NCBI GenBank assembly: GCA_000826855.1 | Contig: JTLS01000031.1 | Span: 1 to 40,956, forward strand | Length of the DNA: 40,956 bases | From: Basidioascus undulatus | Lineage: Eukaryota | Direction: 5' to 3' | Shown here: in pieces, positions 3,073 through 22,667 of the stretch | Layout: each line of letters starts with the position of its first letter | Numbering within the stretch: position 1 is the stretch's first letter | The notes under the pieces: model-generated | Databases searched by the model: none | Told to the model about the DNA's origin: nothing | What the model saw: the letters and a program-made list of their open reading frames with translations, nothing else | Made by a program: the position numbers and the translations under genes

Positions 3073-3488
3073 AAATGGGGTGGCAAAAGGGGGTGGCCGC
3101 GGTCCTCTCTGCTTGAGCTAGGTCGTTGTTTGGACTGAGAACAGACTTTTTGATGACATACCCTACTGGCATATATCCATGTGTTTCTGACGAATATGCA
3201 ATACCTGCTTGTGCCTGAAGACTTCGCCGTGCGTCACAGTGCGTTACGGGCCCGTCACATTACTTCCTAAAAACCTGATCCCGAAAAAAAGGAGCGTCGA
3301 AAGCCCACGGTAGAGTATTGAACGAGATTGACCGTGCGGGACAGCAGGCACGCTGCGCGCAGCTTTCGCTGAGGTGCTTCCGTCTCCCGCTTTCGCTGGC
3401 GAGCACGTTCATTCAGACAGGTCAGCTTGAGCGAATGGCGAGAAGTCCTCTCTGAGGTACCTGTCCACACGCCTGAGAGCCACAGATG

Positions 3489-8292: not shown

Positions 8293-11003
8293 TCACATCC
8301 GCTCGAGCGGGGTAAGCGTGAGGAGGCGCATAGCGGAGGCGAGGACGTTGCGGGCGCAGACGTAGAGGTAAAGGCGGGCCTGTGCAACCTGTTTCCCCCG
8401 CCCAACCACCATCCCATCATCAGCATACATTCGCGTGCAGGACACACAGGACGACATGGGTGACGCACCTCCGGCTCCGCGCCCTTGACGATGACCTGTT
8501 CCCATGCGGAGGACACCACGTGGCTGAGCTTCATGCAGAAGCCGACGATCGCGTTCGGCTCCTTGCTCTTGAAGGCGGTGCGGACGGCGTCCGGGTAGGA
8601 TGCGATGAGGTAGACGAGCTCGCGCGCCTTGGGCTCGGTGAGGAGCGACGTGTCGATCTCGGCGGGGGGGTCCGCGCGCAGGACCGTCTGGTCTGCGACG
8701 CGGCGCTCGACCGAGGAGAGACGCACGTGCGCGTACTGAAGGTACGGGCCCGTGTCGCCCTCGAAGGAGGTCATGCGGTCCCAGGCTGTGGGCGCGGGCG
8801 GGTTAGGTTTGAGCTGGGTAAAGGGGCAAGGAAGGTGGCGTACCGAACTTGTAGTTCATGACACTGCATCACAGCCGCAAGCGGAGCGTAAGCCAGGAGA
8901 CGAAGGGAGGGCGGGGAGGAAGGAGACGCACCGGCGAGCGGTCATGTCCTGGATCTTAACAGCAGACAGACCGAGCGTGTCGGCCGTCCACTCGGGGTCC
9001 TCAAGCTGGTCGTATTTCTTCGTTGTGTCCTTCTTCATGACCTCGAGCATCGTCGTCTTAGCCTCGTTCAAGATCTCTGTTCCCGTCCCTCCGCGCTGAG
9101 CTTTCTTCCTCACGGGGAGCGAAGACGGAGAACGCACGGTCGAGGAACACCGCCGTGCCCTTTCGCGTGGACATGCCGAGGACCATGCCAAAGTTGACGT
9201 GCTCTAGGCGGTCCGCCCACTCGTAGCCCATCAAATCCAGGACCTTGAAGAACTGCGCGAGGTGCAGGTCCTGCTGCGCCGCGACGACGTAGCTGGTTGT
9301 GTCCCACTCTCCGTCAGCTTGACAGAATTCTTGGTCTCCTCCTCTCCCCTCCGTTCTCCTGCTCGCCGGTGGAGGTGAGAGGAAGTGCAATGTGAGAAGG
9401 GGACAAACATCATCTGGTCGAAGTGGTACTTCTCCCACCGCTCGATCGCACCGCCGATATCCCTGTCATTCCACCCGCACACATGAGCATGAGGCGAGGA
9501 GCCTCAAATTCGCAGTATGGATGCGCACCGAGTGATCTGTTTTCCAAACAGCGAAACCCAGATGAGCGGCCCATCTTCCACGTCGCCACCTCTCACACCC
9601 CACTCACGTAAAGCGTCGTCCCGTCCTTCTTACGCACGACCGTCTTGCCTAGCTTGTACTTGTCCAAGTCGATCAGGAGCGTCTTGCCCTGCTCGCTCTC
9701 GGTGACGATGCCCTTCTCCTGGAGGACGTCGACGGCGGCGTTCTGGGACGCTTGCGTGACCTGCGACTCGCCCGAGTACACGTCGAAGTGGATGTTGAGC
9801 CGACCGTATGTCTCCTTGTACTTCTCGATCGACAGGTCTCGGAACTTTTTCCACAGCGCCAGGGGACCCTCCTCGCCTGTCCAGCCCATCCCTCCCTTAA
9901 GCGCCCGCCCGCAGTCCCCAGCCCAGCCCAGTCGGGGGACGACGCACCGTCCTCCATGCGCTTGAAGAACCTCCGCGCCTGGCCGTTGATCGTGTTGTCC
10001 TCGCTCCCGTCGTCGGCCGGTGCAGCAGCATCAGCCGCAGTATCCGCGCCCGGCGCCGCGCCCGGCCCGTCGTCCGCGTCGATGTCGACCGCCTTCTTGC
10101 CCAGCGCTTCCTCCTCCTCCTTCGCGGCGGCGTTGATCTTGACGTAAACGTCGTACAGGTGCGTGATCGGGTCCGTCTTGAGCGCCTCCTCCGAGCCGAA
10201 GCGGTCGAACCCGACCGCGAGAAGACCAAATTGCTTGCCCTGTCACCCCACTCCTCCTCCTTCAGCAACCCACATCCCCACCATCTACACAAGGGGTAGA
10301 GGAATACTAACCCAGTCGCCGAGGTAGTTGATGCGCGTGACCTTCCACCCGTTGGCCTCGTACAGGTTCCCAAGGAACGCGCCGATGATGGTCGAGCGGA
10401 GGTGGCCGGCGTGGAACGGCTTGGCGATGTTGGGGCTCGAGAACTCGAGCACGAGGTGCTTGCCGTTGCCCTGCGTGTTGGTGCCGTACTCGGGCTTGCC
10501 CGAGCCCGTCTTGTACGTGAGCGTGTGCACCTGGTCGAGCACGTGCTTGATGAAGGGCGCGGTGCGCGCCGTGTACGTCAGAAAGCCCGCCTTGTTGGAC
10601 ACGCACTCGAGGTACTCGTTCGGCTCGAACTGTGGGTGAGAGGGTTGAATCAGTCCCGGGTAATGCCCGGGTCGAAAGGGACAGGGCGGTGGCTGCTCAG
10701 AAGACTGCCGGAGCCCGTCGACCGCGAGGCAGACCGCCTCCCGCCCTGGAGAAGAACATGACTCACCGCCTGCACCGCCTTCTCCGCCCAGTCATTCGGC
10801 TTCCCACCCAGACGGAAGCGCGGGACAGCGACATGGAAGTCCGCGTCCTTGCGGCCGATATCAACGCCCTCGTACGCCTTCTCAAGGTCGATGCCGAGTG
10901 CCTTCTGGAGCTGGACGGCGACAGCGGTGCGGTACGCGTCCATCGCGACGCGCTCGGGCTCGGTGCCCGGGATGTAGGGCAGCTGGGTTGCGGAGGACGC
11001 CAT
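8293..11003 (-). CDS. argS: Arginyl-tRNA synthetase (class I), multi-exon
   Basis: HIGH-region motif [33 protein letters not shown], [20 protein letters not shown]-equivalent GMSTRKG, anticodon-domain [19 protein letters not shown]-terminus LTPLERM* (stop at 8293-8295). First in-frame ATG at 11001-11003. Confidence 0.97.
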
Positions 11004-11219
11004 GGTGCGGAGGAGGGGCGGGCGCTGGGGAAGGGAGAGGGCCGAGGTGGTGGCTCGGGGGAAAGGGAGAGGATGCGGGTGCGGGTGAGGGTGGAGGGAG
11101 GAAAGAGCGCGGAAGGTCTGCCGCAGGAAACGGGGAATGGTGGTGGGTGTGTGCGCGGCGGCGGGAACGAGTCAAGGCAAGGATGGACAGTCCAAAGCGA
11201 GAACGCAGCAGGCAAGCAA

Positions 11220-11301
11220 GCCCGGATTTTTGAACAAGTGTCGTCGATGATTCCCACGCTCCATGCAGCTTGTTTCCGTTCCCAGCTTGTCTTTTGCAGG
11301 G
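11220..11301 (-). repeat. Inverted repeat copy B, in the ArgRS upstream region
   Basis: Reverse complement reads ccctgcaaaagacaagctgggaacggaaacaagctgcatggagcgtgggaatcatcgacgacacttgttcaaaaatccgggc, which aligns to 7867-7950. Confidence 0.9.
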
Positions 11302-11409
11302 TTTCTTTATAGCGCATTTCACAGAAAAATTGCCGGTATCAGATATCGTAGAACTGCTAACCACAGGCATCTGTGCCCAAGGTTGCTGAGAAATCGCCGC
11401 TGAGGCTGG

Positions 11410-21637: not shown

Positions 21638-22667
21638 CGCAAGGGGTTCGCGGAGCCGCGATCGAGAGAATGGGTCAGGTTTTGCAGGTTATAGTACACG
21701 ATGTGGTTCAACGTGAACGTTCGTTAACAAGATTAGGAGTCAACATAAGAAGAGGGGGTGGTTTTGCTTCGCGAAGTCAATGGGCAGGAAGCAGTCGTCA
21801 CGTGTGACCCTCTTGCGGGAGACCCATCAGCTGGCTTCGGCTCCAACGGCTGTGTCCCGCACATGGCATTTTAAGCGACAGCACGCAGGAGGAGTATGCG
21901 TCGATGCAGCGTTGAGAGTGCCGAGATTCGGCTGGCAATATGCGATAATGTCATTGCAGCACCCCGGACGTGTGGGTGGCGAAAGACAGTGGTGAACTGC
22001 CATTGTCCGCCTCCGAGTTTTTCAGCTGTGAAATAACTCCACTAGTTTGGGAGGTTCATACAGATTAAAGATAAATCTTACCATGATTGTTTCGATGCTT
22101 CAGCGGTACCCCAGACAGAAGTCCGTCGAGCCCGAGTCAACGCCATCACACGCAACAGCGAAGGTTGCCCTCGAACGCTCACCGTGTGGAACACCTAAAG
22201 AACCAGCCGGAAATTGCAGCTTCTCTTCCATGGAAATCTCTTTGTTAAACAGACGAAGGCGTAGTCGCTCTCCTGTGCGGTGCTTGTGGACTCACGCCGC
22301 CGCGACCGACCGCGCGCGCTACAGACGTCTACTAGTCCGGTGGCGGCTCCATGGGTGCATAATCCTGTGAATCGAGAGACAGATTATTATAGCCTCTCAC
22401 ATTACTACCTTCTCGTCATATCCACAGATACAACTCGAGTTCACCAGTGAGCGCCGAAGCCCCAAAGGTGGTATTGCAGCAGTCCCCGAGACTACCATCT
22501 TTCAGGCCAGATGCCTTCAGGCCTGGTTTCATCGATAGAGCAGTGGATATTTCAAAGTTGAGAAAGAAGGTACCATGTCCACTAGCTGATGAGATTCTGC
22601 CTTGACCGCATTGTGTTTTTAGGAACAGTACACACGTCGCCTCTTCTCCAGCTTTGAACATGTTCTA

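Follow-up and report, generated by a model that had tools for sequence, protein, structure and literature searches.

The window analyzed here, a stretch of 40,956 nucleotides, comes from a basidiomycete whose RPB2 piece is 90% identical to Wallemia and mostly 86 to 90% identical to Agaricomycetes. It carries an ArgRS gene on its minus strand, which comprises 11 exons, including micro-exons of 8 nt (9529-9536) and 20 nt (8844-8863). Removal of the 10 GT-AG introns, which range from 58 to 137 nt, yields one open frame, and the encoded protein contains the Pfam domains tRNA-synt_1d and DALR_1, i.e., catalytic and anticodon-binding domains. This protein is 49 to 58% identical to the 32 homologs with which we compared it, and those with an annotation mostly begin at a methionine matching the AUG at 11003. 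Unlike most named homologs, the ArgRS proteins of Mycena and Sanghuangporus (P0014 and P0028) are annotated with AUG-started presequences.

Upstream of this AUG (ccgcaccATGgcg), the frame stays open for 56 codons without an AUG until the TGA at 11174-11172 of the minus strand, exactly as the original prediction had claimed. The only in-frame near-cognate codons of this leader are the ATT at 11138-11136 (minus strand; context ccaccaccATTccc) and the CTG at 11126. Translation from the ATT would lengthen the protein from 636 to 681 amino acids, and the composition predicted for the added 45 residues, with six Arg and no Asp or Glu, is confirmed on the sequence.

Table 1. Features of the ArgRS gene and its upstream region (window positions)
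Feature	Position	Strand	Basis and remarks
TATA-like box TATAAAG, candidate core promoter	11305..11311	-	Sequence; putative function
Possible 30-codon uORF in the ArgRS frame	11172..11264	-	AUG context mediocre (score 1.0); ends at the TGA
TGACTCG element, Gcn4/AP-1-like	11168..11174	-	Ends the leader frame with its TGA; lies 36 nt above the AUU
Predicted mitochondrial presequence, 45 codons	11004..11138	-	Amphipathic at its start; 6 Arg and 0 Asp/Glu; Arg at -2 relative to the cytosolic Met
AUU, putative near-cognate start of the mitochondrial isoform	11136..11138	-	Context ccaccaccAUU
In-frame CUG, unlikely start	11124..11126	-	Poor context, U at -3, score -6.6; four codons past the ATT
AUG start of cytosolic ArgRS	11001..11003	-	Strong context; homolog annotations
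ArgRS coding region	8293..11003	-	One frame after splicing; homolog identity
ArgRS exons	11003-10767, 10629-10312, 10239-9948, 9876-9608, 9536-9529, 9462-9409, 9292-9138, 9076-8932, 8863-8844, 8785-8469, 8388-8293	-	

By itself the open frame carries no weight, since 95% of 3,000 dinucleotide shuffles of the leader (168 nt) also remained open and AUG free. The proportion fell to 17% for shuffles that in addition lacked Asp and Glu and had at least six Arg, and to 1.3% for those that also had a near-cognate codon with A at -3. The combination of an open, Arg-rich, acid-free frame and a near-cognate codon with A at -3 is not expected by chance. The first 20 residues from the ATT have a hydrophobic moment of 0.91, a value reached by 0.2% of 2,000 residue shuffles, compared with 0.27 for the AUG form. 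By these composition and moment measures, and with an Arg at -2, the extension has the properties of a predicted presequence.

To score start contexts, we built a matrix from the AUGs of 26 clusters of relatives (see below). The ATT scored 3.9, in line with the strong context originally predicted for it, the AUG 7.0, and the CTG -6.6, so that the AUU and not the CUG is the candidate start. The CTG does lie in frame four codons after the ATT, as predicted, but its context argues against the initiation there that had also been proposed, and we rejected it. The window gene has a near-cognate codon in strong context above a strong AUG, with no AUG between them, which is the arrangement of fungal dual-localized synthetases with a near-cognate start. 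A hairpin 13 nt below the AUU (-5.7 kcal/mol, z score of -0.6) was not supported as an initiation enhancer; the whole 138-nt leader, one of four folds computed, had a z score of -2.7. Elsewhere in the window, a divergent gene of the protoglobin family (PF11563; 13958-14600, plus strand) has an AUG in the context cccaccATG, the same as that of the ArgRS AUU.

Conservation of the leader in relatives

A scan of metagenome contigs for ArgRS genes of relatives yielded 80 loci, of which we analyzed 73, leaving out 7 whose match lay at a contig edge or began mid-query. A callable AUG was present in 69 of the 73, and 62 had at least 330 nt of upstream sequence. These were grouped at 85% identity into 26 clusters with one representative each. 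Best hits mark 22 clusters as Agaricomycete-like and the other 4 as Microbotryomycete-like; being related, the clusters do not count as independent cases.

The ArgRS frame is open for at least 20 codons above the AUG in 25 of the 26 clusters, compared with 18 and 14 in the other two frames. The 20 codons before the AUG (520 codons in total) encode 78 Arg, 13 Lys, and a single Asp or Glu; the counts in the other two frames are 24 and 34 for Arg and 26 and 39 for acidic residues. In 12 of the 26 clusters, as in the window, position -2 relative to the Met is an Arg (background, 0.13; P = 5e-5). Arg at this position fits the R-2 rule of the mitochondrial processing peptidase. The pattern purine-NN-(C/G)UG-G, which was picked after viewing the data, is found in frame in 18 clusters, versus a single cluster in each of the two other frames.

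The leader contains no in-frame AUG in 16 of the clusters and has one somewhere upstream in 9, whereas 1 has no leader. We picked a start for each of 25 loci with a rule blind to the TGACTC element described below, which gave CUG in 9, GUG in 8, AUA in 3, AUG in 2, ACG in 2, and AUU in 1; the sole AUU pick is doubtful, and locus L051 appears to use AUG. Conservation in relatives had been proposed as a check of the original prediction, and it holds for the open frame but hardly for the AUU codon. Judging from these sequences, the leader arrangement is conserved while the start codon varies and AUU is rare. Basidiomycete ArgRS genes thus seem to have a hidden leader in general, one that most annotations leave out. 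Six ArgRS-like loci of relatives (L075, L078, L080, L057, L060, and L074) have no leader or an atypical one and are possibly further duplicates that lost their presequence; L078 retains two TGACTCG elements.

A TGACTC element in synthetase promoters

The original prediction overlooked the TGACTCG element before ArgRS. We take it to resemble the Gcn4/CpcA response element, TGACTC(A). Gcn4 controls synthetase genes, and the element found here shares with the Gcn4/CpcA element the hexamer core and its occurrence on either strand of several synthetase promoters. It differs in its seventh base, which is mostly G in the relatives, and the factor that would bind it is putative.

TGA(C/G)TC, counted on both strands, occurs in the 330 nt above the AUG in 23 of the 26 relatives, compared with 7.1 ± 2.1 in 100 shuffles; five control stretches of relatives had it in 5 of 23, 4 of 19, 7 of 25, 5 of 24, and 6 of 22 cases. 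TGACTC proper, again on either strand, precedes ArgRS in 22 of 26 relatives; the adjoining 330 nt contain it in 3 of 23. Six of nine synthetase genes in the genome of the window have TGACTC(G/A) no more than 500 nt from their AUG, namely those for ArgRS, both IleRS, ValRS, and the cytosolic forms of MetRS and SerRS. The background is 0.115 per 500 nt, and the P value of 5e-5 applies to a count of 6 of 8 genes, not 6 of 9. The element is absent from the 500 nt before the genes for LeuRS, mitochondrial MetRS, and mitochondrial SerRS, the last with 310 nt available; the ThrRS promoter, whose contig ends 61 nt upstream, was left out of the count. The TGACTC core is therefore enriched in synthetase promoters regardless of orientation, as expected of a putative Gcn4/CpcA element. 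The 7-mer TGACTCG shows no excess in the entire window (7 seen versus 7.3 expected). In the literature searched, mostly papers available without subscription, we found no paper that treats ArgRS starts at near-cognate codons across basidiomycetes or the TGACTC element, and a term search of the main text of PMC8494424 returned no motif.

Probable production of two ArgRS isoforms from one gene

The mitochondrial contig with cox1 bears a tRNA-Arg(UCG), so the mitochondria need an ArgRS. Short cox1 matches also occur at G000:C779:22274-22429, C2977:8166-8324, and C99:10672-10785, which are possibly nuclear copies of mitochondrial DNA. We consider it highly probable that the window gene supplies both the cytosolic and the mitochondrial ArgRS by leaky scanning, from the AUU and then the AUG. 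The transcript would begin above 11138, and scanning ribosomes would reach the AUU in its strong context, where a minority would initiate with Met and produce the 681-residue precursor. Its amphipathic, Arg-rich leader would direct import into mitochondria, where the precursor would be cut, probably after Arg-Thr according to the R-2 rule, leaving nearly the cytosolic N terminus. Most ribosomes would bypass the AUU and make the 636-residue cytosolic enzyme from the AUG.

The AUU-initiated mitochondrial isoform is supported by the context score, the amphipathic leader with its R-2 site, the purifying signatures in the 26 clusters, the mitochondrial tRNA-Arg, and the Cryptococcus case discussed below. 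Leaky scanning is further supported by the finding of no other presequence-bearing ArgRS, and by LeuRS of the same genome. The latter (G000:C667:3417-3596, L103) has an AUG-free in-frame leader of 59 codons with an AUU at 3456 and an ACG at 3471 in good context before an Arg-rich, acid-free presequence; by analogy with Cryptococcus LeuRS, it may be a second near-cognate synthetase of the genome. The names LeuRS and ValRS (below) are our reading of Pfam hits and motifs. This reading of the window gene draws on sequence, gene structure, conservation, and the search for other presequence-bearing ArgRS genes, from which the transcript start, initiation at the AUU, import, and cleavage would follow. 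Several observations argue against it. The AUU is not conserved (1 of 25 picks), the leaders of 9 of the 26 relatives hold an in-frame AUG, the TGACTCG lies so near the AUU that transcripts could start close to or below this codon, and the second ArgRS of the genome has a roughly fourfold higher rate of evolution, as is common for mitochondrial copies. Of the original proposal that one gene makes both enzymes by leaky scanning, the AUU start is thus supported, while the CUG start is unlikely and the genome has two ArgRS genes rather than one.

In addition to AUU initiation, the isoform ratio might be set mainly by two transcription starts, with a long mRNA using the AUU and a short one, starting below 11138, encoding the cytosolic enzyme only. 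We regard this as a possibility, though on balance a somewhat unlikely one. It would fit the alternative transcription start close to the AUU of Cryptococcus ArgRS, described in the parts of PMC7049704 available to us, as well as the location of the element just 36 nt above the AUU, from which transcripts could start close to or below this codon. In 19 relatives TGACTC lies 8 to 111 nt above the picked start, and in 13 of these the distance is 18 to 51 nt. In the ValRS gene (G000:C1268:about 22330-22465, L102), a weak AUG with U at -3 lies 35 codons above a strong AUG, and the first AUG has one TGACTC 31 nt upstream, while another lies between the two AUGs. On the other hand, the element may just raise total transcription. 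The possible uORF (Table 1) would matter only if transcripts start above 11264, and the TATA-like box would likewise be relevant to long transcripts.

It is very improbable that the mitochondrial enzyme comes instead from the second ArgRS, as from yeast MSR1, and that the leader in the window is a leftover. Contig searches found two ArgRS loci in the genome, a count that is a lower bound. The second (G000:C201:19086-16465, L009) is 62.6% identical to the window gene and has 13 exons, including one GC-AG intron. In a quick tree of 31 rows it is sister to the window gene (SH-aLRT, 100) on a branch of 0.55 versus 0.13. Its splice sites and frame are intact except in exon 1, where a G run contains a single frame shift that may, given this location, be an assembly error. 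Its branch and nearly intact gene would suit a dedicated mitochondrial copy, and it is unlikely to be a contaminant, given its sister position and three main RPB2-family loci that fit one haploid genome. However, the C201 copy has no presequence at its AUG (moment of 0.23) or at an upstream AUA (0.15), and acidic residues are present there. With a frame shift and no presequence, it differs from an MSR1-like enzyme, and the window gene, which retains all presequence features, is the only presequence-bearing ArgRS found. The original prediction envisaged a genome without a separate mitochondrial ArgRS; a second gene does exist, but in this frameshifted form. Its presence also sets this case apart from a dual-localized synthetase encoded by a single gene. 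The C201 leader lacks the early Arg codons but has a TGACTC 36 nt before an ACC-ATA, the spacing of TGACTC to ACC-ATT in the window, which suggests a decayed copy of the window leader. The alignment of the two is weakly significant: over -129..-1 it is not significant (P = 0.24 for DNA and 0.30 for protein), and over 250 nt P is 0.012 in local and 0.15 in ungapped alignment. The genome's duplicate of cytosolic IleRS (G000:C2635:3000-6250, L101), about 85 to 95% identical in aligned exons, likewise has frame shifts, at least two, as well as a short tandem repeat in an intron.

We give equally little credence to an upstream AUG exon spliced to the CAG at 11120-11118, which would give an AUG-started leader and leave the AUU in an intron. 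Such exons can be joined in frame on paper (e.g., AUG 11370 with a donor at 11361, or AUG 11317 with a donor at 11257), and the TTGAC at 11175 resembles a branch point. Nevertheless, the weakest of the 22 real donors (-1.2) outscores every such donor except one, which would require a 244-nt intron, outside the real range. The branch-like site lies 58 nt from the AG, compared with 11 to 54 nt in 14 of 22 real introns (the other 8 have no match to the pattern), and its TGAC is accounted for by the element, which relatives carry on either strand. Finally, we find it scarcely credible that the open leader is a never-translated by-product of a C-rich 5' UTR. The openness of the shuffles speaks for this reading. 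Against it are the signals seen in relatives (an Arg excess and a shortage of acidic residues specific to the ArgRS frame, R-2, and the start contexts), the amphipathicity (P = 0.002), and the lack of another presequence-bearing ArgRS among the loci found.

Relation to known systems

In Saccharomyces cerevisiae, GRS1 (UUG) and ALA1 (ACG) have been shown experimentally to gain a presequence from an upstream near-cognate start. The original prediction cited them as its precedent, and the kind of start is indeed shared; these are, however, other synthetases and experimentally established ones, and the closest precedent is instead the orthologous ArgRS of Cryptococcus. According to the parts available to us of the study by Wallace et al. 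(2020, PMC7049704), which covers C. neoformans and C. deneoformans, Cryptococcus ArgRS (CNAG_03457, CNG01310) initiates at cccaccAUU, where a presequence is predicted and ribosomes occupy the leader, and Table S5 of the study lists the gene as DualNCC with "Verified: No." The two systems thus agree in the gene, the AUU codon, the ccacc context, and the presequence before a strong AUG. They differ in that the Cryptococcus gene is single copy and has ribosome profiling, whereas the present fungus is not a close relative, has a diverged second copy, and is known from its DNA sequence. No Tremellomycete names occur among its best 120 RPB2 matches, and the window ArgRS did not group with Naganishia in the quick tree. 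The LeuRS and ValRS start arrangements described for Cryptococcus in the same paper are as in the present genome, while an upstream TGACTC element is not mentioned for ArgRS in the parts available.

The same table lists Candida albicans ArgRS (C1_01530C) as DualNCC and Neurospora ArgRS (NCU08195) as DualAUG, with unverified localization. As here, one ArgRS would serve both compartments from two starts, but these fungi are ascomycetes and Neurospora uses two AUGs. S. cerevisiae RRS1/MSR1 (PMC7049704) resembles our case as a lineage-specific ArgRS duplication. There the duplicate is the mitochondrial enzyme with an AUG presequence, whereas here the duplicate is frameshifted and without a presequence, and the conserved copy has the leader.

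Given that the mechanism and even the codon have been published for the Cryptococcus ortholog, the core finding is unsurprising and its novelty low, and the survey of relatives and the adjacent TGACTCG element are modest additions to a known system. A review of transcription-start control of synthetase isoforms (PMC9604717), as far as available to us, treats Gcn4 as a regulator of alternative starts. It is conceivable, though we think it rather doubtful, that across Basidiomycota ArgRS pairs a near-cognate start, exchangeable among CUG, GUG, AUA, ACG, and AUU, with a conserved TGACTCG some tens of bases upstream, such that under amino-acid starvation a Gcn4-type factor bound to this element would fire a start at or below the codon and only the cytosolic enzyme would be induced. 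If true, one element would set the cytosol-to-mitochondrion split of synthetases. The sequences of relatives, both mushroom type and yeast type, point to the same early-start arrangement with other start codons. What they add is an apparently widespread hidden leader of basidiomycete ArgRS that is missing from most annotations, which matters for the prediction of mitochondrial proteomes, and a set of naturally occurring start-codon exchanges at a single orthologous position, which is useful for studies of near-cognate initiation. The conserved candidate starvation element beside the start bears on how the isoform ratio may be tuned through the transcription start.
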